Positions 3,793-39,036 of a stretch of DNA of 39,770 nucleotides are shown one piece after another. Position numbers and translations under genes: made by a program. Positions within the stretch are counted from its first letter, which is position 1; each line of letters begins with the position of its first letter. The stretch covers positions 1 through 39,770 of the IMG/VR virus record IMGVR_UViG_2778261456_000009; one strand, given 5' to 3'. The notes beneath the pieces are model-generated. The model made no database searches, had not been told where the DNA came from, and worked only from the letters and a program-made list of their open reading frames with translations. The stretch is from a virus. Its lineage: Duplodnaviria; Heunggongvirae; Uroviricota; Caudoviricetes.

Positions 3793-4544
3793 CAGTTTAC
3801 CCCATCGGTATTGCTTCCACCGCGCTGAACACCGCCATGAGTGTGCGTATCATCGATTGGCTTGCCGTTAGCCTTCACGCTACCCAAAAACTCAACAGCA
3901 CCAGTGATTTTTGAAGCCACACCAGAAACAACAGACCCCACCATGCCCCCCATCCAGGTTAACAGGCCATGAATGGTTACTTTCTCAGAAAAATCAGCCA
4001 GAGGGGCAACCACATCAAGACCACCCGGAGCGACAATTTTAATTTTCCTGGTGTCAGGATTAAGCTCAAAATAGGTGCTGCCGTCGTCACTACGCAACTG
4101 TGTGGCACTGGTATTAATACCGCTAATCTTCCTCGCCTGCGACTGGGGACCGACAATACAAAACGCATCCGATAAATCATGCATTCTGTCATCGACCGGC
4201 TCCTGTATCCCGCCACTCTGCCACCAGAAATCAATACAACGATCGGCAAAAACGACAAGACACTCATCCCCGGCTTTTACCGGAAAAGTCAACGTACAGC
4301 CTCCGCCGCGCGGGAATACCACTGGTACATCCACCAGCAATGGGTAATTTTTGGTAATGCGCTTGCCGTCATTATCCTTTTCAACCGAACGGATAGCAGG
4401 CTGCACAACTGCCGTCACCGGATCAGGATCGAATGACTGAATAATGCCAGGCAAGGCGACACGGATCTGGTTCTTTGTTGTTTCCCGTTCAGATTTGAAT
4501 GTTTCGGCAAGGTCGCCGCTGCGGGTCTGGTCAGATACTGCCAT
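3792..4544 (-). CDS. Baseplate assembly protein V (central spike)
   Basis: 250 aa; position upstream of GP46/J genes; GGAG RBS upstream of ATG at 4544. Confidence 0.65.
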   Translation of the reverse strand: MAVSDQTRSGDLAETFKSERETTKNQIRVALPGIIQSFDPDPVTAVVQPAIRSVEKDNDGKRITKNYPLLVDVPVVFPRGGGCTLTFPVKAGDECLVVFADRCIDFWWQSGGIQEPVDDRMHDLSDAFCIVGPQSQARKISGINTSATQLRSDDGSTYFELNPDTRKIKIVAPGGLDVVAPLADFSEKVTIHGLLTWMGGMVGSVVSGVASKITGAVEFLGSVKANGKPIDDTHTHGGVQRGGSNTDGVN

Positions 4545-4562
4545 TTAGTAGGCTCCAGAAAG

Positions 4563-4590
4563 CAAAAAACCCGCCGGGTGGCGGGTTTTA
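4563..4590 (-). terminator. Intrinsic terminator downstream of lipoprotein moron
   Basis: Plus strand AAAAACCCGCCGGGTGGCGGGTTTTA; on minus strand a 6-bp GC stem (CCCGCC/GGCGGG, 4-nt loop) followed by TTTTTTGC; lies between lipoprotein stop (4610) and spike gene RBS. Confidence 0.6.
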
Positions 4591-4609
4591 TGTGACTAAT
4601 TTGATCTTT

Positions 4610-5335
4610 TCAGTTTATAAGCCCCATCTTACCGGCGCTTCGATAGTTAATTACATCGCCTGAAGAGCCGCAAGGCACAGCTACAGTCGACATTTTGACA
4701 AATCCTTTACCGCCCTGCTTTTGGCATAAAGTGGCATGCATTTTTGCTAAACGCGCAGCATGACCAAAATCAATTTTGGTTCCGTAAGTTGAATCTCGTA
4801 GAGCTGCTTTTTTTGCAATTCCGGTAATATTTTTGTCTTTAATTACAGATGCAAACAAACTCAAATCATTTCCAATTTGATTGAAGCAAGTACGATTAAT
4901 ATCAACATCGGCATACGCTGAAATGCGTTTGCAATCTGAGATCTGAGAAAGCACAGATGTGTTAACCAGTTGCAAATTTAATTTGTAGTCACCGACATAG
5001 GTATAAATTTTGTTAGGGTCCGTGGTTCCCGGATAACGAGTTACGAATGGAATGCTGTTGTACGCATCTCGCAAAGATTCTGCCCCCTTACTTGTAAGCT
5101 CGTTCCCAACACCAGCAACGATAACCTCTGGATGTGAAACTTCAAATTGAGACTTTTCTTCGCGCTGTATTTGAAGCCTGCTTTTCTGGCTCTCCTCAAC
5201 TTGCTTATCGTACGCTTGTTTTTCTTCATTTTTTTGGGATAGCCATTTTTCCTGCGCTTTAGCACCATTAGGATCCCAACTACATGAAGTTAAAAAAAGA
5301 GAAAATACGATTGTGGTTATCGCAAGCCTGCTCAC
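4610..5335 (-). CDS. Lipoprotein of unknown function (moron)
   Basis: 241 aa; N-terminal signal peptide with lipobox LTSC; charged coiled-coil-like segment then globular C-terminal domain; AT-rich relative to neighbours; GTG start 2 nt after upstream stop with GAGGTG RBS. Confidence 0.75.
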   Translation of the reverse strand: MSRLAITTIVFSLFLTSCSWDPNGAKAQEKWLSQKNEEKQAYDKQVEESQKSRLQIQREEKSQFEVSHPEVIVAGVGNELTSKGAESLRDAYNSIPFVTRYPGTTDPNKIYTYVGDYKLNLQLVNTSVLSQISDCKRISAYADVDINRTCFNQIGNDLSLFASVIKDKNITGIAKKAALRDSTYGTKIDFGHAARLAKMHATLCQKQGGKGFVKMSTVAVPCGSSGDVINYRSAGKMGLIN

Positions 5336-5337
5336 TA

Positions 5338-6402
5338 TTATGCACCTCGATTCATCGCTGACTGGCTAGGAATATCACTAGCACCTCGAGCAAAGCACAT
5401 CATATCCATGTACCACGCCTGGCCCCTTGTGTCGCCAGTGTACATAATCCCGCGCACAATATAAACGCCATCCGTTGCGATGCTGGCAGGCTGCGATGTG
5501 GTGCCGCTTAGCGTGATATTTCCATCCGAGTTCTGGTCGGTGATCTGACCACCAGCCATCGCAATATCGTTGTTCGACAACGCGGTGCGATATACGGAAG
5601 CCTGATCCAGTTGAATGAGCCCATTAACCCGGATGTTCGGATTAATAAGCGCGCGGACGTTTACGCCGTTGCCGATAGTCTGCTGCGGCATGCCGATAAG
5701 CCCGGTGGCGCTGTTGAGCACAATCGCTTCATGAACATATTCGTTATTCGCCACCATCTGGCGTTGACCGTCCACGAATTGCCATGTTGCGCCACATTGC
5801 CCGGCTACGTTATCCATAAGATGCCGCGTCATGCCAAAGAGCACCCGCCCCCGGGGGAATACAGTAGCAGGCATTTCAGGCGTCAGGCCTTCGGTCGCGC
5901 CTTTGGCTTCGAAGTCTTTCATCAGCGCACGGTTCACATCAGCGACCGTGTAACCGGCAGCCAGCGTCTGTGAGGTTATACTGGTGGCAAATGCCAGATC
6001 CGTATCTGCTGCCTGAATCAGGACATAGGAATCAATAGGGCTGTCTTTTCCTGTGACCGAGTAGCGAATTTCTCCGCTGAAAATCAGCCCGTAGTTGCGG
6101 CCATCTGTCTGGCCCACGTCCGCCGCGTCAACTTCCCGCACGGTCCCTACGTCGCTTGCTGACACCTCCGGCGCGATACCGTCGTAACCGGCAATCAGAC
6201 GCACTTTCGAAAATTCCTGCCCGGTGATTCGGTTCACAGTATCTGCCGAGAGGTTATAAATTTTGATAGTCCCTACCCGGGACGCGCTGCTGATGTTGAA
6301 CCAGTCGATCGTAAAGGTGACTTTGAAATCACTTAGCTCAATTCCCTGACCGTTCCCGTTCACAAGCTGCAGCTCGAAATGTCTCATCCAGTTCTGTGAC
6401 AT
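5338..6402 (-). CDS. Baseplate hub / tail protein (Mu P or P2 gpD-like)
   Basis: 354 aa, located between tape-measure-distal small tail genes and the spike; assignment by position and size only. Confidence 0.5.
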   Translation of the reverse strand: MSQNWMRHFELQLVNGNGQGIELSDFKVTFTIDWFNISSASRVGTIKIYNLSADTVNRITGQEFSKVRLIAGYDGIAPEVSASDVGTVREVDAADVGQTDGRNYGLIFSGEIRYSVTGKDSPIDSYVLIQAADTDLAFATSITSQTLAAGYTVADVNRALMKDFEAKGATEGLTPEMPATVFPRGRVLFGMTRHLMDNVAGQCGATWQFVDGQRQMVANNEYVHEAIVLNSATGLIGMPQQTIGNGVNVRALINPNIRVNGLIQLDQASVYRTALSNNDIAMAGGQITDQNSDGNITLSGTTSQPASIATDGVYIVRGIMYTGDTRGQAWYMDMMCFARGASDIPSQSAMNRGA

Positions 6403-6404
6403 GC

Positions 6405-6707
6405 TTACTCCGTTGATACCAGTAAATGACTGCGGCCGCCCAGATCAGTTTTTGTGGGGTAATCCTGTGTGTTGTCATCGCAGACCACCACCAGCTTAAA
6501 ACCAAGTCCCATACAGGCGTACTGCGCCAGCAGATCAGCGCCAGTGACGAGAGGAATACCGGAAATTACCGGCTCCCCTCTGTCGTTCTGCAGGTCCATA
6601 ATCCAGTAAAGATCGCGCCATATGATGCTAATCTGCCAAGTGACACCACCCAGGACGATGCTGAACTGCTGGTTGTCCGCTGTCAGCGGAATTTCCTGAA
6701 TTATCAT
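6405..6707 (-). CDS. Tail protein, unknown function
   Basis: 100-aa ORF tightly packed in the tail operon. Confidence 0.45.
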   Translation of the reverse strand: MIIQEIPLTADNQQFSIVLGGVTWQISIIWRDLYWIMDLQNDRGEPVISGIPLVTGADLLAQYACMGLGFKLVVVCDDNTQDYPTKTDLGGRSHLLVSTE

Positions 6708-7294
6708 TAGCCGCCTCCCAGTAATGACGCCACGTTACCAGTGATGCTTTTCAGCAGTGAAGTATCTGGAGGCTTTGTGGTTTTGTTGCCGCTGTTCTGT
6801 ACCGCCGACGTGCTGGCCCCTTCCTTCATGTTGGTTTTATCCGCGACGGTAATCTGCTGTGTCCGGGAGATAATGACCTCCCTCAGGGTGAGGACGGCGG
6901 ACAGGACGTTTTCGGTTGTCTTGTCCGTCGTCACTTCCAGCGCCCGGATCAACATGTTGCTGTACAGCCGTTTACCGGTTACCACATCGAAGGGGATACG
7001 GCTTTCCTGCAGATCCAGTAGCTCCTGATACGTCTGCTGAGGACTCAGGCCGAGCAGGCTGGTAGCCGTCAGGTTACTGGCAAAATCCAGCAATGCGCCG
7101 CCACCGGCGAAACCAACCTCCATCACCACTTCTGACGGTTTTTTATAGGCATGATCAGCGACAGCGGCCCCGACCTCTACCGGATGCTCTGTTATTTCAA
7201 GCATATCTGTATGCTTCTCTGAAATAACAACACTGGGAACAATCATTCCTATTTTTCTGCTCTGCTGATGAAAAAGTGTAGAGAGAATATCCAC
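6707..7294 (-). CDS. Tail protein (possibly DNA-circulation-like)
   Basis: 195 aa directly downstream of tape measure gene with start/stop overlap. Confidence 0.45.
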   Translation of the reverse strand: MDILSTLFHQQSRKIGMIVPSVVISEKHTDMLEITEHPVEVGAAVADHAYKKPSEVVMEVGFAGGGALLDFASNLTATSLLGLSPQQTYQELLDLQESRIPFDVVTGKRLYSNMLIRALEVTTDKTTENVLSAVLTLREVIISRTQQITVADKTNMKEGASTSAVQNSGNKTTKPPDTSLLKSITGNVASLLGGG

Positions 7295-24570: not shown

Positions 24571-24726
24571 TTACTCCTCAGATTCGTAAGCTGTGAAGAC
24601 AGCGACCTCCGTCTGGCCGGTTCGGATTCGTACCTCGCAGAGGTCTTTCCTCGTTACCAGTGCCGTCACTATGACGGTTAAACAGATGACGATCAGGGCG
24701 ATTAACATCGCCTTTTGCTGCTTCAT
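24571..24726 (-). CDS. hok: Hok/Gef-family type I toxin
   Basis: 51 aa MKQQKAMLIALIVICLTVIVTALVTRKDLCEVRIRTGQTEVAVFTAYESEE, near-identical to recalled HokD/RelF and Gef; AAGGAG RBS. Confidence 0.85.
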   Translation of the reverse strand: MKQQKAMLIALIVICLTVIVTALVTRKDLCEVRIRTGQTEVAVFTAYESEE

Positions 24727-24783
24727 AGCCTGCTTCTCCTTGCCTTTCGGCGCGTAAGAGGCTAACCTACATGTGCAAGTCAT
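24571..24783 (-). CDS. mok: Mok-like in-frame leader ORF of hok
   Basis: In-frame 19-codon extension from ATG at 24783 (MTCTCRLASYAPKGKEKQA-), analogous to mokC/hokC in-frame arrangement. Confidence 0.4.
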   Translation of the reverse strand: MTCTCRLASYAPKGKEKQAMKQQKAMLIALIVICLTVIVTALVTRKDLCEVRIRTGQTEVAVFTAYESEE

Positions 24784-24972
24784 AGATATGGCCTCAGATT
24801 AATGTTAAGCGTCTTGCCGGACGCGTAATGTTAACTGGGGCTTTTCTCTATCTGCCTTTTGGTGTTCATGCCTGAGACAGATAGCCTCAAGCACCCGCAG
24901 CAATTCTACTTAACTCTCGCTTTACCGCAAACCGTTTTTACCCGATATGGGAATTCCCATATCGTAATGAAT

Positions 24973-25077
24973 TCAGTTCCCTAGTCGATCCATCAAAAAC
25001 ACAACCAGGCAGTAAACGCCCACAACAGCAATAACAGCCAGCGCACCTTCCATTGCCAGTGAAATATCATCCGACAT
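24973..25077 (-). CDS. Unlisted 34-aa hydrophobic peptide (putative small membrane protein)
   Basis: MSDDISLAMEGALAVIAVVGVYCLVVFLMDRLGN; ATG preceded by AAGGAGG at ideal spacing; one predicted TM helix; below track size cut-off. Confidence 0.35.
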   Translation of the reverse strand: MSDDISLAMEGALAVIAVVGVYCLVVFLMDRLGN

Positions 25078-25192
25078 ATTCCCTCCTTTGGTGTGAATCC
25101 CGGCGAACGTTTTTACCCCCACCGACAAATAACATATACTAAAAAATCAATAGCTATAGCAACGCCTGTAATTGCAAAGGCTTCAGGCCAGA

Positions 25193-26023
25193 TCATTGGC
25201 GCACCTCCTGCGGCGGTTCTGGTAGCGGCATCCAGTGGGTTACTCCGTCAATTGGTTCATCGTCGTCGTACTCCAATGCGGCTATATAGAACCCGTCACG
25301 ACGAGAATAAGAAATCCCGGACATTACAATGCCATCCGAAACAACAATAATGTCACCCGTTTCTTCCGGCATTCGCTCACTACAGCTTATCCAACCATCC
25401 GGAGTTACCGGAAGCGAGAACGGCAGCACATCTCTGTGAACAAGTTTTTGCTGTGACAGGTTATCCAGAACTTTCTGTACTGCTGCATCACCGAATACAC
25501 CAAGCGCATCTGCCATAACTCCTACAACCTGATAAGCCTCAGCGCATACCGTGGATAAACCATCCGGAATTACCGGAGAGTTGGTTGACGTTTCCGAGGT
25601 TTCCCGAAAATTATTGGTTGACGAATCCTTATTTTCCCGAAAGTTTCCAGCCTGAAGCATTGCGGCGCGGCAGGCGTTCCAGCCTCTCACCTCTGCAATA
25701 GCGGCAACAGCATCAACCGCGTACATGCTAAGAGGATTAGGCATTGGTTTTTCTTCCGGTACTACTGGAACGGGTGGAGCGGCGTAGACTTCAATAATCC
25801 CATTATCAATAGGCCATTCTCCATCCTTGAGGTAGTCACTTGTGCCGTCAACTTTCTGTTCTGCAATGTGGAATGCACCTATTGGTTTTGCTTCCAGCGA
25901 TACCAGTGCAATTCGTGCCAGTTCCTCCGCTTCTTCTGCTGGCAGTACAACGTTGCTACCCGGTCCGTATGTTTCGCGCCACTGCTTGATTGTCAGCAGT
26001 CGCTCTTTGGTTATAGTGGTCAT
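25193..26023 (-). CDS. DUF551-type C-terminal domain protein
   Basis: 276 aa; C-terminus (GFYIA...THWMPLPEPP) matches recalled DUF551 signature; internal NFRE..STN tandem repeat; AAGGA RBS. Confidence 0.6.
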   Translation of the reverse strand: MTTITKERLLTIKQWRETYGPGSNVVLPAEEAEELARIALVSLEAKPIGAFHIAEQKVDGTSDYLKDGEWPIDNGIIEVYAAPPVPVVPEEKPMPNPLSMYAVDAVAAIAEVRGWNACRAAMLQAGNFRENKDSSTNNFRETSETSTNSPVIPDGLSTVCAEAYQVVGVMADALGVFGDAAVQKVLDNLSQQKLVHRDVLPFSLPVTPDGWISCSERMPEETGDIIVVSDGIVMSGISYSRRDGFYIAALEYDDDEPIDGVTHWMPLPEPPQEVRQ

Positions 26024-26033
26024 TTGTTAGTCC

Positions 26034-26789
26034 TTAAACTGCCAGTTGCAATTGCATTTCAAAGCGGTCGCGTTGTTCACAATACGCAAGAGAACCAGGG
26101 CTATTGTGTGCCTCAATCCGTTCTACCATTAATGCTGCGCGTGTCTCTTTACTTGCAGGTGCATAAGCCCCAGACCAGGCTTTATCAATACCGATGTTTC
26201 GAGCGACGTTCGTACTATCTGCGCTGGCTAAGGGTAATTTTGTGAATATCAGCGGATTTAACATGCGCAATCCATGTAGTTTCGTAACCGGCTGACCATG
26301 CTCATCAACAATGTGACGAATCAGGTCTTTCATTCTGGCTACCGCAAGAGTTGGGCGCTTTACGTCATAGTCTCCACAACTACCGATAGCCACTCGCGGA
26401 AACTCATTGCACAAATGAATAAACCGCTCGTCACTTTCATTCATGTGCCACACTGGAACGCCAGATAGTTTTCCGTGAGGCCACTCATTCAGAAGCGCAT
26501 CATTTTCCTCCTCTCCGCCATCAATAACATCCGGGATAATGGCAAAATCGAATCCTGGGTGATTCTTCCAGCGAGCGACAAACTCGTAGTAATCGCTCCA
26601 GTCGATTTTGTTTTTGCCAGCTGCTTTCCAGGCGGTGAATGCACCGTTGTCCAGCGCGAACGACTGACAGTATTCAGCCGCGAGATTGATCTGTCCTGAA
26701 TGCGCAAAACTGATAAACGCATGCCGCCCTTTCCATGCTCTCATTGCGCACGTATCAGGAGTAATAGGCCCACCGTGATAGTGAATCAT
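26034..26789 (-). CDS. Conserved phage protein of unknown function
   Basis: 251 aa from ATG at 26789 with AGGAG RBS (track start 26822 is TTG); globular enzyme-like composition. Confidence 0.55.
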   Translation of the reverse strand: MIHYHGGPITPDTCAMRAWKGRHAFISFAHSGQINLAAEYCQSFALDNGAFTAWKAAGKNKIDWSDYYEFVARWKNHPGFDFAIIPDVIDGGEEENDALLNEWPHGKLSGVPVWHMNESDERFIHLCNEFPRVAIGSCGDYDVKRPTLAVARMKDLIRHIVDEHGQPVTKLHGLRMLNPLIFTKLPLASADSTNVARNIGIDKAWSGAYAPASKETRAALMVERIEAHNSPGSLAYCEQRDRFEMQLQLAV

Positions 26790-26790
26790 C

Positions 26791-27339
26791 TCACTCTCCT
26801 TTGATGCGAATGCCTGTTGCAATGCTGTTTATGATGCTGTCAGTGCATGGGGTAGAAAGCTGGGCATCTCCAGCAATTTTCATGACCTCAACATCTGCAT
26901 ATCGAATACCGAGGTGTATCAGACCGGCTATACCTGACTTAAGCCGAGCATTTTCCATAAACAGATCCTTTGCCCGCTGTTTTTCTGCCTCAAGCTCAAC
27001 GCGCAGCTTCCCTACCGTTAGCGCAATATCCTCGTTCTCCTGGTCGCGTGATTTGATGTATTGCTGGTTTCTTTCCCGTTCATCCAGTAGTGCCAGCACG
27101 GTAGCTGGGTTAACCTCTGCTATGAATTCAGCGTTTGCATAAGCCTGAGCATCTGTTTCAACCAGGCAGTTAACGTGACATTCTGCAATTACGCCACCGG
27201 GTTCTCCTTTCCATTTTTGACAAACAAAAACTCCTGTTATATTCCCATGCTGATTGACCGATGTATGCCCTACGATGTAGCTCCCTTTCGTTGCCTTTTC
27301 TGCCGCTTCACGCAGTGCCTGATAGTTAATTTTGCTCAC
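26791..27339 (-). CDS. Ead/Ea22-like protein
   Basis: 182 aa, GTG start with AGGAGG RBS; N-terminus [16 protein letters not shown] shared with neighbour paralog; coiled-coil middle. Confidence 0.55.
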   Translation of the reverse strand: MSKINYQALREAAEKATKGSYIVGHTSVNQHGNITGVFVCQKWKGEPGGVIAECHVNCLVETDAQAYANAEFIAEVNPATVLALLDERERNQQYIKSRDQENEDIALTVGKLRVELEAEKQRAKDLFMENARLKSGIAGLIHLGIRYADVEVMKIAGDAQLSTPCTDSIINSIATGIRIKGE

Positions 27340-27923
27340 TGGTTGCCTCCTTTGCGAAGCTGTTCAGCAATACTTACGCATATCTCTGCGCCTCTAATCA
27401 GCCCCGGAACGTTCTTGTTTGGCCCAACTTCACCATCAACAAAATCAATCATCGCGTTACGAGCCATATCCACCCCCTGCGCACGTACTTCAGCCAGGAG
27501 AGCGTCGGTAGCTGGGGTTTCCGTGAAGTTGTCCTCCCAACCGTAGTACTCCTGACGACAGAAGTTATTAAATTCCTTCTCCGACTGTTTAAGCGCCGCA
27601 TTCTCCACTGCCAGCGCCGCGCACTTGGCCTCAAGAGCTGCAACCACTTCCTGATGGTCTTTGTACTTAACGTATGAGCCGGAGATGTCATCACCTTCGG
27701 TGTTTAGCCATGCGTCATTGCAATTCACTGCGTAGGTTCTGATGCTGATGCTCTCCCGCCCCTGACAGACGCCAGGCCAGTCAATAAAGTATCCGCAATG
27801 CCTACCCTCAGACGTGCGCGCAGGATAAATGCCGTTATGACCCGGCAAAATATATGCTACCCATTCATCTTGCGTTGCCTGTTCCGCCGCCTCGCGCAGT
27901 TCTTGATAGTCAATCTTGCTCAC
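27336..27923 (-). CDS. Ead/Ea22-like protein (tandem paralog)
   Basis: N-terminus [17 protein letters not shown]; start set at GTG 27923 preceded by AGGAGGCAACCA, identical to neighbour. Confidence 0.55.
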
Positions 27924-28662
27924 TGGTTGCCTCCTGGCAAAGCTGGGCGACAATATCGCGATATTTATTCAGCTCCCGCAGCGCGACACAGACTCGCTCC
28001 CATTTCCGGATATCACTTTTCGCCCGACGCAGTTCGCGGTTTGCCTGTCGCAGCGATGGCAGAACCAGATTATCCACTCGCTTCTCAAGCGGCTGCACAA
28101 TGTCTGCCACAGTTTCTGTTTTAATATCTTCCTGTGTTGCAGCTTCCTGTCCCGGTAACGCAACACCTGCTGGTTGAGGAAAGGCCTTACCATCACTTTC
28201 CGTTACCAGCGCGGCTTTCGGCTCTGCTGGTAAATTATCGCCCGGCATGCAGTAACGAAATTTACCGTTCTGATTAACGCGTGCCAGCCGCCCCGTTGCG
28301 GTTACCACCGCCAGCGTGGAAGCAACCTTGCGAGTACTGACACCGAACTTACCCGCCAGTTCCTCACACGTTTTAGCCCCATCCTGACCGATAAACTCAA
28401 TCATCATGTCTGCGGTAACTTTTTGTTCGACCTCCCCGGTCAGCATATCCTGTGCTTCAGATTTTACTGGCCGCTCTTCGGTTACCCGGGATTCACCTTC
28501 GCCAGCCAGAGACCAGGTGTGACCAGTTTTATCAACAACGCCATTTCTTTTGAGTTCCCACAGCTCGTTGACAGCCTCTTCACGACTGATATCAAGTCGC
28601 GCAGCCAGTTCTACCGACGTGGCTTTTCCCATTGCTTTCAGTGCGTCAAATACAGTTTCCAT
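27910..28662 (-). CDS. Replication-module protein with N-terminal winged-helix-like domain (DUF1627-like)
   Basis: Start set at ATG 28662 with GGGAGG RBS; sits between DnaC-like gene and ead-like genes. Confidence 0.5.
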
Positions 28663-33714: not shown

Positions 33715-36372
33715 ATGAGCACCGATAAACAAGTTTACCCACTGTATTACGAAGCAAAAAATGACAAAGTAAGAAAACGTCTCGGTATTAAAGGCGGTTT
33801 CTACTGGGCTGAAGCGAAAAAATTATCCATTGCCATCTCCCGTGGTGCTGTTGCGATTGACGATGCTGGCTACGATGAAGATGACTTTAAAAAACCTGTT
33901 CGCGTCAATTTGCCCGTTGTTGATGACCTTCCACCAGAAGGCGTATTTGATACGGAATTCTGCAACCGTTACGAAAAAGGCGGGGAAGATGGCATCACAA
34001 TGGTATTTATCGCGCCCTCATCCTCTGCGCAGGACAAACCAGCCAGCACTGACAATACCAATGTTAATGGCGAAGACATGACGGAGATTGAGGAGAATAT
34101 GCTACTCCCGATTTCCGGTCAGGAGCTGCCCATTCGCTGGCTTGCTCAACACGGCAGCGAAAAACCGGTAACGCACGTTTCACGCGACGAACTACAGGCA
34201 TTACACATTGCACGAGCTGAAGAACTACCAGCTGTTACTGCCCTGGCTGTTTCCCACAAAACCAGCCTGCTCGACCCGCTGGAAATTCGCGATCTCCACA
34301 AACTGGTGCGTGATACTGACAGAGTTTTCCCTAATCCAGGCAATTCAAGCCTGGGGCTGATGACTGCTTTTTTCGAAGCATACCTGGACGCAGACTACAC
34401 CGATCGCGGTCTGCTGACAAAAGAGTGGATGAAAGGAAATCGTGTTTCACGCATCACGCGCACGGCTTCCGGCGCTAATGCTGGCGGCGGGAACCTCACC
34501 GATCGCGGCGAAGGTTTCGTTCACGATCTGACGTCACTGGCGCGCGACGTAGCCACTGGCGTACTGGCTCGTTCAATGGACGTGGACATTTATAACCTTC
34601 ATCCGGCACACGCTAAACGTGTCGAGGAAATTATCGCTGAAAATAAACCGCCCTTTTCTGTTTTCCGCGACAAATTCATCACCATGCCTGGCGGGCTGGA
34701 TTATTCCCGCGCCATCGTGGTTGCGTCCGTAAAAGAAGCACCAATTGGGATCGAGGTTATCCCCGCACACGTCACTGAATATCTTAACAAAGTACTGACT
34801 GAAACTGATCATGCCAACCCTGATCCAGAAATCGTGGATATTGCCTGCGGTCGTTCCTCTGCCCCGATGCCGCAGCGTGTAACAGAAGAAGAAAAACAGG
34901 ATGATGAAGAAAAACTGCAACCATCTTGCGCAATGGCAGATGAACAGGCAACGGCTGAAACAGTGGAACCGGATGCAACTGAACATCATCAGGACACGCA
35001 GCCGCTGGATGCTCAGTCACAGGTAAATTCTGTTGATGCGAAATATCAGAAACTGCGGGCAGAACTCTATGAAGCCCGGAAAAACATTCCGCCCCAAAAT
35101 CCTGTCGATGCAGACAAATTACTGGCTGCCTCTCGCGGAGAATTTGTTGAAGGGATTAGCGACCCGAATGATCCGAAATGGGTTAAGGGGATCCAGACCC
35201 GCGATTCTGTGTACCAGAATCAGCCAGAAACGGAACAGAACGACCCAAATACGCAACAAAACGAGCCAGAAACGAAACAGCCTGAGCCAGTAGTGCAACA
35301 ACAGGAAACGGAGAAAGTTTGCACCGCCTGCGGTAAGGCTGGCGGCGGCAACTGTCCTGACTGTGGCGCGGTGATGGGCGACGCAACGTATCAGAAAACC
35401 TTTAATGAAGAAAATCAGAATGAATATCAGGAAAAAGGTCTGGAGGAAATGGAAGGTGCTGAACATCCGCACAATGAGAATGCTGGCAGCGATCCGCATC
35501 GCGATTGCAGTGATGAAACTGGCGAAGTCGCAGATACCGTAATCGTAGAAGACATAGAGCCAGGTATTTATTACGGAATTTCGAATGAGAATTACCACGC
35601 GGGTCCCGGTGTCAGTAAGTCTCAGCTCGATGACATTGCTGATACTCCGGCACTGTATTTGTGGCGTAAAAATGCCCCCGTGGACACTACAAAGACAAAA
35701 ACGCTCGATTTAGGAACCGCTTTCCACTGTCGGGTACTTGAACCGGAAGAATTCAGTAACCGCTTTATCGTAGCACCTGAATTTAACCGCCGTACAAACG
35801 CCGGAAAAGAAGAAGAGAAAGCGTTTCTGATGGAATGCGCAAGCACAGGAAAAACGGTTATCACTGCGGAAGAAGGCCGGAAAATTGAACTCATGTATCA
35901 AAGCGTTATGGCTTTGCCGCTGGGGCAATGGCTTGTTGAAAGCGCCGGACACGCTGAATCATCAATTTACTGGGAAGATCCGGAAACAGGAATTTTGTGT
36001 CGGTGCCGTCCGGACAAAATTATTCCTGAATTTCACTGGATCATGGACGTGAAAACCACAGCGGATATTCAACGATTCAAAACGGCTTATTACGACTACC
36101 GCTATCACGTTCAGGATGCATTCTACAGTGACGGTTATGAAGCACAGTTTGGCGTGCTGCCAACTTTCGTTTTTCTGGTTGCCAGCACAACTGTTGAATG
36201 CGGACGTTACCCGGTTGAGATTTTCATGATGGGCGAAGAAGCAAAACTGGCAGGCCAGCAGGAATATCACCGCAATCTGAGGACCCTGGCTGACTGCCTG
36301 AATACCGATGAATGGCCAGCTATTAAAACGTTATCACTGCCCCGCTGGGCTAAGGAGTATGCAAATGACTAA
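33715..36372 (+). CDS. recE: RecE, exonuclease VIII
   Basis: 885 aa; from about residue 110 near-identical to recalled K-12 RecE, including C-terminal nuclease domain; first about 100 aa diverge from recalled sequence. Confidence 0.95.
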
Positions 36373-37174
36373 GCAACCACCTATCGCAAAAGCCGATCTG
36401 CAAAAAACCCAGGGAAACCGTGCACCAGCAGCAGTAAAAAATAACGACGTGATCAGCTTTATTAATCAGCCATCAATGAAAGAGCAACTGGCAGCAGCTC
36501 TCCCACGCCATATGACGGCTGAACGAATGATACGTATCGCCACCACAGAAATTCGTAAGGTTCCGGCGCTAGGAAACTGTGACACCATGAGTTTTGTCAG
36601 TGCGATCGTTCAGTGTTCACAGCTCGGCCTTGAGCCAGGTAGCGCCCTCGGCCACGCATATTTACTGCCTTTTGGTAATAAAAACGAAAAGAGCGGTAAA
36701 AAGAACGTTCAGCTAATCATTGGTTATCGCGGCATGATTGATCTGGCTCGCCGTTCTGGTCAAATCGCCAGCCTGTCAGCCCGTGTTGTCCGTGAAGGTG
36801 ACGAGTTTAGTTTTGAATTTGGCCTTGATGAAAAGTTAATACACCGCCCGGGAGAAAACGAAGATGCACCAGTGACCCACGTCTATGCTGTCGCAAGACT
36901 GAAAGACGGAGGGACTCAGTTTGAAGTTATGACGCGCAAACAGATTGAACTGGTGCGCAGCCAGAGTAAGGCTGGTAATAACGGGCCATGGGTAACTCAC
37001 TGGGAAGAAATGGCAAAAAAAACGGCTATTCGTCGCCTGTTTAAATACCTGCCCGTATCAATTGAGATCCAGCGCGCGGTATCAATGGATGAAAAGGAAC
37101 CACTGACAATCGATCCGGCAGATTCCTCTGTATTAACCGGGGAATACAGTGTAATCGATAATTCAGAGGAATAA
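36365..37174 (+). CDS. recT: RecT, single-strand annealing protein
   Basis: 269 aa starting [24 protein letters not shown]..., matching recalled RecT; ATG overlaps recE stop; track start is over-extended. Confidence 0.95.
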
Positions 37175-37706: not shown

Positions 37707-37994
37707 ATGGCAATGAATCTTGTGACACTCAAAACGTGGGGGAAACTCAGATATCCGGATAACCCACCATCAATATCAACGCTGAGACGATGGGCAAGGA
37801 ATGGAAACATTTATCCTGCACCTGAACTACACGGGAGGAGTTACAGGGTGGTTCCGGAAGCTTTCTATATCAACCCAAATAAGGTTGATACCGATATAAC
37901 ACACCATCAACCTAATGGGCGACAAGGGAGAGACGGTCCGTTACTGGAGAAGTTAAAACATGCAGCGGAAAAAATACGATCCCAATTTGCCTAA
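37707..37994 (+). CDS. xis: Excisionase (Xis-like)
   Basis: N-terminus (TLKTWGKLRYPDNPPSISTLRRWARNGNIYPAPELHGRSYRVV) parallels lambda Xis; AAGAGG RBS; 3' end overlaps int start as in lambda. Confidence 0.6.
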   Translation: MAMNLVTLKTWGKLRYPDNPPSISTLRRWARNGNIYPAPELHGRSYRVVPEAFYINPNKVDTDITHHQPNGRQGRDGPLLEKLKHAAEKIRSQFA

Positions 37995-39036
37995 AAACTT
38001 AACATATCGAAGGAGGGACAAAGCATATTACTGGCGCAACCCTCTGACGAAAGAAGAATTTACACTAGGTAAAATTTCAAGAAGAGATGCAGTAGCGCAG
38101 GCAATTGAAGCAAATCATTATATATACAAAAACTACTCTCCTGCTGCCTTAATTGAAAAACTTAAAGGGTTCGACTCATTTACTATGGCAGACTGGATTG
38201 AACGTTACAAAACGATTCTTATAAGGAGAAAAGTGTCCAGAAATACTTATAAAATTCGGGTAAATCAACTGGAGACAATAAAAGAAAAATTAGGAGGGAT
38301 TTTACTGACAGAAATAACCACTCGCCATATTGCCGAGTTTCTTGATTTGTGGATTGAAGGAGGGAAAAACACGATGGCAGGATCAATGCGTTCTGTGTTA
38401 TCTGATATGTTCCGCGAGGCCATTGTTGAAGGACGTATATCTCAAAATCCAGTAACGCCAACAAGAGCACCGAAAATAGTAGTTACAAGAGAACGGCTGA
38501 AACTAAAGACATACAACTGCATCAGGGAGGCAGCAGATCAACTTCCGGCATGGTTCCCATTAGCTATGGATTTAGCCCTTGTAACAGGACAACGTCGCGA
38601 AGACATAACGAATATGCGGTTCAGTGATATTTATGATGACCGTCTCCACATCAGGCAAATTAAGACAGGAATGATGATTGCTATCCCTCTGTCACTCAGC
38701 CTTCCTGTCGCTGGTCTACGGCTTGGTACAGTAGTTGAACGATGCCGCCTGGTAAGCCGGGGAGATTATCTAATCAGTGCCGGGATTAGAAAAAACAGCC
38801 CTGACGGCAGCATTCACCCGGATGGCCTGACAAAAAAATTTGTCGCAGCCAGAAAATTAACAGGTATCCAGTTCAGTGAAAACCCACCAACTTTTCACGA
38901 GATCAGAAGTCTGGCTGGACGATTGTACAAAGAAACATGTGGAGAAGAATTTGCCCAGCGCCTACTTGGTCACACATCGGAGAAGACAACAAAAATGTAT
39001 CTTGATGAGCGAGAAAAAACGTACTTACTGCTCTGA
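37960..39036 (+). CDS. int: Tyrosine integrase, lambda Int family
   Basis: 358 aa; alignable by eye to lambda Int (PPNL, FGLG, catalytic region with [11 protein letters not shown] and [13 protein letters not shown]). Confidence 0.9.

Follow-up and report, generated by a model that had tools for sequence, protein, structure and literature searches.

A DpdA-like gene of the DpdA-only type in a lambdoid Escherichia coli prophage

The window analysed here (the whole stretch of 39,770 nucleotides, positions 1 to 39,770 of IMG/VR record IMGVR_UViG_2778261456_000009) carries a minus-strand gene at 26034..26789 whose 251-residue product is, with high confidence, a member of the phage DpdA family of the tRNA-guanine transglycosylase (TGT) superfamily. 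This compact protein belongs to the 'singleton DpdA' group of gamma-proteobacterial phages. During the lytic cycle it would replace guanine in phage DNA by preQ0 made in the host and would so protect the DNA of the progeny; on the analysis described below, the probability of this full mechanism is put at about 0.6. Doubt attaches chiefly to which base is inserted, to how much of the DNA is modified and to whether the clade has diverged in function. The finding is not new, as both the literature and PHROGs already list the family.

An earlier note on this DNA had left the protein unassigned, with no recognisable family, and had speculated on a resemblance to TGT/DpdA enzymes. The first of these statements does not hold: orthologues are given as DpdA by Hutinet et al. 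(2019) and PHROGs places the protein in phrog_887. The speculated resemblance is supported by this placement, by homology to CAjan DpdA, by the register of the catalytic residues and by the gene neighbourhood of relatives.

Family assignment and predicted active site

In PHROGs the whole protein was assigned to phrog_887, 'queuine tRNA-ribosyltransferase' (E = 3.5e-103), and several phage records use this name for homologues that are 53-68% identical. The DpdA of phage CAjan, which loses dPreQ0 in its DNA when dpdA is deleted (PMC6884629), was matched by BLASTP with E = 4e-8 and 24% identity over 152 residues. Using hhalign, the family alignment (A1) gave 93.1% against the single CAjan DpdA sequence and 96.1% against the DpdA1 family profile (A2), the latter with E = 2.9e-9 over 147 columns covering residues 45-197.

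The group is on published record. In the survey of Hutinet et al. (2019; Nat Commun 10:5442, PMC6884629), 76 of 182 phages encode DpdA and no synthesis genes (group 3), and Supplementary Data 1 lists as DpdA-only the Salmonella phages SPN3UB, SEN1, BTP1 and 7-11, the Enterobacteria phages HK106 and SfI and the Vibrio phage Athena1. The singleton DpdAs of gamma-proteobacterial phages form a cluster of their own in the similarity network of that study (PMC6884629). The Athena1 protein AUG84879 (P0090), which stands in its DpdA column, is 68% identical to the window protein over the full length. The sole homologue in SPN3UB, gp54, is 93% identical and is encoded between the replication genes and NinG, as in the window.

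The AlphaFold2 model built from A1 has high confidence (pLDDT 85.8, pTM 0.85) and consists of an eight-stranded β/α barrel. When ranked against a structure library, the model scored highest with Cap10 (9ntn; 15.1), the DNA preQ0 insertase DpdA (7ui4; 14.9), archaeosine TGT (1iq8; 14.1) and bacterial TGT (3unt; 13.9), followed in fifth place by PdxJ, the first generic barrel (13.4). The (β/α)8 barrel is closest to TGT/DpdA structures, with a small score margin between these and the generic barrel; on this model, chance appears very unlikely to place the library's few TGT-like chains in all four top ranks. In BFVD (viral predicted structures), 25 matches reached E <= 1e-3, and those that bear a name are without exception phage queuine or queuosine tRNA-ribosyltransferases. 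Foldseek against the PDB returned generic barrels only.

HMMER gave no bridge to 7UI4 or to TGT, and residues were therefore mapped by way of CAjan DpdA and its published residue list. In that enzyme the general base is Asp63, Asp206 serves as nucleophile, and the pocket is made up of Ser64, Phe67, Asp105, His132, Gly153, Gly154 and Phe189 (Kot et al., 2020, PMC7544227); for bDpdA of S. Montevideo, roles are assigned to Asp95, Phe99, Asp130, His181 and Asp256 (PMC10164549). The hhalign register pairs Asp63 with D47, Ser64 with N48, Phe67 with F51, Asp105 with D90, His132 with H115, Gly153 with G136, Gly154 with S137, Phe189 with L174 (Leu236 in bDpdA) and Asp206 with D191. Conservation was measured by alignment column counts in 71 close homologues and 78 divergent environmental homologues, given in this order below; counting by regular expressions was dropped, the patterns being too narrow for divergent sequences.

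The predicted general acid/base D47 (Asp95 in bDpdA) opens the motif D47-N48-G49-A50-F51 (codons 26637..26651, minus strand), which aligns with D63-S-G-A-F67 of CAjan DpdA. D47 was found in 71/71 and 78/78 sequences, and F51, the predicted base-stacking Phe (Phe99 in bDpdA), in 70/71 and 75/78, with Tyr in the remainder. The predicted catalytic nucleophile D191 (codon 26217..26219, minus strand; Asp256 in bDpdA) lies on strand 8 in S-A-D-S-T; S189-A-D191-S192 aligns with S204-C-D206-S207 of CAjan DpdA and D191 was present throughout (71/71 and 78/78). The same counts were obtained for H115 (codon 26445..26447, minus strand), the predicted base-recognition His in V-W-H at the end of strand 5 (His181 in bDpdA), and for G136 in the Gly-rich loop after strand 6 (G206-G207 in bDpdA, G153-G154 in CAjan DpdA). 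L174, the second stacking hydrophobic residue, was retained in 70/71 and 73/78, the remainder being Met. At the end of strand 4, D87 (codon 26529..26531, minus strand; I-P-D-V) was found in 70/71 and 78/78, and D90, which stands opposite CAjan Asp105 in hhalign, in only 48/71 and 47/78. Since D87 is nearly invariant and D90 poorly conserved, D87 is the likelier candidate for the base-recognition Asp (Asp130 in bDpdA, Asp105 in CAjan DpdA). As far as the alignment can tell, every residue needed for both half-reactions is intact.

The three motifs quoted in the earlier note are present in the translation as FISFAHSG (residues 25-32), ALDNGAF (45-51) and IGSCGDYD (135-142). Their description as acidic catalytic loops fits ALDNGAF, which holds the predicted general acid/base, and fails for the other two: FISFAHSG is located on strand 2 and is not catalytic, and IGSCGDYD is the loop after strand 6, of whose residues the wider family conserves G136 and S137 alone.

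Strand 1 carries a clade-specific motif, HxHG (H3-Y-H5-G6; codons 26773..26783, minus strand), with H3 in 71/71 and 73/78, H5 in 71/71 and 78/78 and G6 in 71/71 and 76/78 sequences. Other family features are N48, S137, H172 and R175, of which DpdA1 shares only His172 (CAjan H187).

Genes of the 7-deazaguanine pathway were sought by tblastn with FolE, QueD, QueC, QueE and YhhQ of CAjan and with QueD of Caulobacter phage DMCA as probes. Neither the 39.8-kb window nor the stretches up to 10 kb from the gene in 80 close viral contigs yielded a preQ0-pathway gene (0/81). The close clade is truly 'solo', matching the published 'DpdA-only' definition. A second set consisted of 80 viral loci (L089-L168, IMG/VR) from a more divergent branch which keeps the same motifs. 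Here a QueD-like (16), QueE-like (8) or YhhQ-like (10) gene was present in 28 of the 80 loci, on the same strand and 6-704 bp away (usually no more than 30 bp from the DpdA-like gene); some of these loci are near-duplicates, so that 28/80 is not a count of independent events. In phage DMCA the DpdA-like gene begins where the QueD gene ends. Quite apart from sequence and fold, the contrast between 28/80 and 0/81 links the family to 7-deazaguanine metabolism, as does the close, operon-like spacing of the genes.

Most of the representative neighbours tested were backed by Pfam: Vut_1 for the YhhQ-like transporters, Radical_SAM for the QueE-like proteins (with Fer4_12 in two of three tested) and PTPS for the QueD-like proteins, the last being strong in L133, at or below the cut-off in two short forms of ~95 residues and without a match in L146. 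Many QueD-like neighbours are unusually short in this way (~95 residues) and are borderline or unmatched for PTPS. Neither QueC nor FolE was found in the distant-branch loci, in ~950 kb searched; a pathway that has QueD and QueE and lacks QueC would end at CDG, unless the later steps were supplied by the host. No conserved partner gene was found across the window, SPN3UB, HK106, SEN1 and ETEC1701.

Proposed function and alternative readings

Induction of the prophage would lead to transcription of the early-right operon, in which the gene stands with those for replication. By analogy with DpdA and TGT, the enzyme would bind double-stranded DNA and flip a target guanine into the barrel pocket of F51, L174, D87 and H115. 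Asp191 would attack C1', guanine would leave and a covalent enzyme-DNA intermediate would form; Asp47 would then deprotonate the incoming 7-deazaguanine base, which would attack C1' and so join the DNA. Guanines in replicating phage DNA, and probably in host DNA too, would be exchanged for a host-made base, most likely preQ0, which once inserted may end as dPreQ0 or dADG. Progeny phage would enter the next host with DNA partly shielded from restriction enzymes or from other defences that target DNA, and we infer an anti-restriction role from this scheme.

The base must come from the host queuosine pathway, because the prophage is without folE, queD, queE, queC and yhhQ. In E. coli, 9g DpdA alone or nt-1 DpdA2 alone gave dPreQ0 in plasmid DNA, which was lost in a ΔqueD strain; the host pool is therefore sufficient in principle.

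Several points weigh against this mechanism or against the assignment beneath it. Scans with Pfam, NCBIfam and PADLOC models gave no match at E <= 1, the Pfam TGT model PF01702 did not match the protein, and PDB sequence searches by HMMER with the single protein and with profile A1 yielded no real match. The residue correspondence derives from sequence alignment and not from structural superposition, and the conserved Asp of strand 4 is displaced by three residues from CAjan Asp105, leaving the register uncertain by that amount. The second Gly of the strand-6 loop is replaced by Ser (S137; 71/71 and 73/78), TGT and bDpdA have a structural zinc site that the protein lacks, and the invariant HxHG motif has no counterpart in DpdA1, CAjan DpdA included. 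Hutinet et al. state that singleton clusters may have diverged functionally (PMC6884629). In the same study phage 7-11 contained dADG at 50 per 10^6 nucleotides, ~0.02% of G, and the DpdA-only mycobacteriophage Orion, whose host has no preQ0 pathway, showed no modification (PMC6884629).

Some of these points lose weight on comparison with the validated DpdA1 family, which has no precomputed Pfam domain, no PDB sequence match and no CxCxxC motif; PDB sequence searches with CAjan DpdA and with profile A2 gave no real match either. Because DpdA1 shares them, the database negatives are typical of phage DpdAs and were not counted against membership. The earlier note had proposed a search for conserved Asp residues and a zinc site. 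The former exist (D47 and D191); the latter is absent, with no conserved Cys/His cluster past the nucleophile. Only H228 (13/71) and C237 (20/71) were found C-terminal to D191, and no CxCxxC motif. As validated DpdA1 is likewise without CxCxxC, this absence excludes bDpdA and TGT proper and does not exclude phage DpdA. H3 and H5 (also H23 and H77) might form a metal site in place of the zinc site, or might belong to the core of the barrel.

The negative result for Orion is explained by the lack of a preQ0 pathway in its host. With a trace only in 7-11 and nothing in Orion, modification may be sparse. The closest examined relative is phage 7-11, for which the related protein of Salmonella phage SeKF_80 is ~36% identical to that of the window; the 7-11-type protein, taken at full length from SeKF_80, has all family motifs including HFHGGP. 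The coding sequence annotated in SeKF_80 (L004, OR863363.1) as 'queuine tRNA-ribosyltransferase' (193 residues, 4169-4750) is truncated at its N-terminus; the frame (3998-4750) runs upstream to ...LTVHFHGGP and includes the LDNGAF catalytic motif. Later papers define bDpdA and DpdA1-4 and add no data on singleton DpdAs, and recent work on GrwAB, on Dag glycosylases and on phage iggy does not deal with them.

Tentatively, the HxHG singletons could be a separate and functionally distinct DpdA subfamily rather than DpdA1 minus its pathway, with an altered pocket (N48, D87, the G-S loop, the His pair and no zinc) that changes base or sequence specificity. The outcome might then be, for example, insertion of host preQ1 or CDG, or a sparse, motif-specific mark. 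Such a mark could serve temperate phages for purposes other than bulk anti-restriction: self-marking, evasion of one defence, or control of replication or packaging.

The same chemistry on DNA may employ another base, namely preQ1 (the main free intermediate in E. coli), CDG or another 7-deazaguanine. VH7D DpdA2 prefers preQ1 and also takes preQ0 and CDG, and the strand-6 loop, which reads the 7-substituent in TGTs, is G-S-x-G/A instead of G-G. The distant relatives adjoin QueD or QueE and never QueC, a set that would by itself stop at CDG, and the modification in 7-11 DNA was dADG, not dPreQ0. We consider a different base unlikely all the same, as every tested DpdA1 and bDpdA inserts preQ0 and the link to YhhQ, a preQ0 transporter (PMC6884629), fits preQ0 salvage; the sequence holds nothing that decides base specificity.

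Functional divergence could also have gone further, to a DNA glycosylase that removes a base without reinsertion, directed perhaps at host DNA or at rival phages with modified DNA, or to a catalytically weak or regulatory protein, with little modification or none as the outcome. The trace or absent modification in the DpdA-only phages examined, the caution of Hutinet et al. on singleton clusters and the invariant HxHG motif without a zinc site all agree with this. It is nevertheless quite improbable: D191, D47 and the base-pocket residues are invariant across hundreds of divergent members, which points to retained base exchange, and the QueD, QueE and YhhQ genes adjacent to relatives only make sense if 7-deazaguanine is consumed. 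Orion, moreover, is accounted for by its host.

A substrate other than DNA, either tRNA (as for TGT and archaeosine TGT) or protein (as for Cap10 of type IV CBASS, which transfers deazaguanine onto a CD-NTase), would agree with the database name 'queuine tRNA-ribosyltransferase', but this name is an inherited annotation and not a test. Sequence homology is detectable to phage DpdA only and not to TGT or Cap10, as seen from the Pfam TGT, PADLOC and PDB sequence searches. The protein has neither the tRNA-binding C-terminal domains nor the zinc subdomain (251 residues against 373-577), there are no Cap9 or CD-NTase neighbours, and the gene is situated among DNA replication or recombination genes in several phage types. 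A non-DNA substrate is thus very unlikely.

An HxH on strand 1, His residues on later strands and an Asp on strand 8 superficially recall amidohydrolase/TatD metal sites. That the protein is an unrelated TIM-barrel enzyme, such as a metal-dependent hydrolase or aldolase acting through HxH, H115, H172 and D191, is hardly credible and already largely refuted: this layout and the generic barrels returned by Foldseek speak for it, while the significant DpdA1 homology with its motif-for-motif register, the TGT-like names of all named BFVD neighbours and the family's tie to 7-deazaguanine genes speak against a superficial likeness.

Gene, operon setting and distribution

The gene runs from an ATG at 26789-26787 to a TAA at 26036-26034. 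The earlier note had placed a 251-residue open reading frame at exactly these positions, leaving the strand unstated. On the minus strand, the sequence 5' of the start reads AAAGGAGAG-TGA-G-ATG. The ribosome-binding site, read from the sequence, is GGAGAG at 26794..26799 (minus strand), 4-9 nucleotides before the ATG, and falls within the final codons of the ead-like gene upstream, which ends in a TGA at 26791-26793. A good ribosome-binding site and tight coupling, as described in that note, were thus confirmed, with GGAG 6 nucleotides before the ATG and the upstream stop codon ending 1 nucleotide before it. An alternative TTG start at 26822, listed by the program (262 residues), was not supported. 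Homologues are 248-252 residues long and begin M-I-H-Y-H-G, and the ATG at 26789 is therefore taken as the real start.

The upstream gene (26791..27339, minus strand; phrog_368/250, RefSeq name ead/Ea22-like) is translationally coupled to the dpdA-like gene and is part of the same early operon. The downstream DUF551-like gene (25193..26023, minus strand; phrog_60, RefSeq DUF551) belongs to this operon too and begins 10 nucleotides past the dpdA-like stop codon. The PHROGs annotation gives the minus-strand order CII, replication initiator, DnaC-like loader, phrog_630, two ead-like genes, the dpdA-like gene, the DUF551-like gene, hok/sok, NinB, HNH and Q, which bears out the earlier placement between the replication and nin-like genes; RecE, RecT, xis and int are on the opposite arm of the prophage. 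No convincing minus-strand promoter or terminator was found between the replication genes and the dpdA-like gene, which accordingly counts as part of the early-right lytic operon. Going downstream from it, a strong terminator-like hairpin is first met at 24503-24484, after hok/sok.

Other features of the window were recorded as follows. The two tandem ead/Ea22-like paralogues directly upstream (182 and 205 residues, both phrog_368) occupy 26791-27953 on the minus strand. A hok/sok-type toxin-antitoxin module is present in the nin region at 24571-24896 (minus strand), with an Rfam sok match (RF01794, 113.7 bits) at 24721-24896 and a MokW/hok-like open reading frame at 24571-24783. An 885-residue RecE-like exonuclease VIII (phrog_607) followed by RecT is encoded at 33715-37174 (plus strand), 37707-39036 holds the genes for excisionase and integrase, and 164-22122 is taken up by those for tail, head and lysis. 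By this gene content, the window contains a lambdoid prophage that is nearly complete and has a RecET recombination module. None of the complete E. coli genomes matched the 3-kb stretch 25000-28000 over at least 80% of its length, so that this particular mosaic is rare.

The dpdA-like gene itself is widespread. It was found in 204 of 5,426 complete E. coli genomes (~4%), always annotated 'hypothetical protein', and the identical protein is encoded on 77 public contigs. Relatives were detected by tblastn in 108 phage records, mainly of Vibrio, Salmonella, Escherichia and Klebsiella, and an exhaustive profile search yielded 1,548 representatives (50% identity clusters) at E <= 1e-3, 209 of them at E <= 1e-30. 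Given the 77 contigs, the 204 genomes and the 1,548 cluster representatives, the gene is clearly real and under selection.

The relatives in HK106, SEN1, SPN3UB and ETEC1701 are likewise in early operons: the HK106 copy is near xis/int, and that of the P2-like SEN1 is directly upstream of the replication gene. E. coli ETEC1701 (L169, NZ_CP122938.1) has a 100%-identical gene at 6001-6756 in an early-left arm, between RecT/ead and DUF551/xis/int of a prophage at the ybhC att site, with pseudogenised remnants of ead and DUF551 on either side. The gene behaves as a mobile mosaic cassette, and its position in the other arm with these pseudogenised flanks indicates that the cassette shuffles between early operons.

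DpdA-only genes were the largest group of phage 7-deazaguanine genes in the 2019 survey (76/182) and are the least understood, two such phages having been analysed. A copy in an inducible lambdoid prophage of E. coli, the organism with the best genetics for the queuosine pathway, offers a convenient system in which to ask whether the DNA of a temperate phage is modified from the host preQ0 pool alone, and whether this is protective or exposes the phage to defences that depend on modification, such as GrwAB or Dag1. The annotation can also be improved, as NCBI and UniProt label every copy 'hypothetical protein'.

Comparison with known systems

Bacterial TGT, archaeosine TGT and Cap10 act on tRNA or protein, are larger, possess a zinc subdomain and extra domains and occur in other genomic contexts. 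For the type IV CBASS context of Cap10, no Cap9 or CD-NTase neighbours, no PADLOC match and no QueC-like sequence were found in the window. The bDpdA of S. Montevideo (PDB 7UI4) has 413 residues, DNA-binding insertions and a structural Zn2+, and requires the DpdB ATPase within an 11-gene dpd cluster. All of these features are absent from the window protein and its locus, no sequence similarity to it is detectable by HMMER, and neither a DpdB ParB-like ATPase nor a dpdC-K cluster is found among the neighbours (ead/Ea22-like, DUF551-like, replication and nin genes).

The DpdA1 proteins of Queuovirinae (CAjan, 9g, Bas24 and iggy) are validated dPreQ0 or dG+ DNA transglycosylases. They share with the window protein a homologous core (residues 45-197 against CAjan 61-212), the motifs D-x-G-A-F, P-x-x-H, I-G and K-L-H, the S-x-D-S nucleophile motif, and the lack of a CxCxxC zinc motif and of a Pfam match. 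The window protein is only ~24% identical to DpdA1, is 55 residues shorter and has unrelated N- and C-terminal segments. Its conserved Asp is at 87, S137 stands for Gly154, N48 for Ser64 and L174 for Phe189, and the HxHG of strand 1 is missing from DpdA1. In virulent phages, DpdA1 genes are embedded in folE-queD-queC-queE clusters and account for modification of 0.1-30% of G; the window gene stands alone in a temperate phage.

The singleton DpdAs of DpdA-only phages (Hutinet et al., 2019) are the same family: the HK106, SEN1 and 7-11-like proteins are 36-38% identical to the window protein and have every motif in common with it. Like these phages, the prophage has no preQ0 genes and lives in a host with the full queuosine pathway. 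Nothing substantive differs, and the window gene is another allele of this group in an E. coli lambdoid prophage. Beyond the 2019 work, the present analysis adds the HxHG motif, D87, the G-S loop and the no-zinc signature, together with an environmental branch linked to QueD, QueE and YhhQ.

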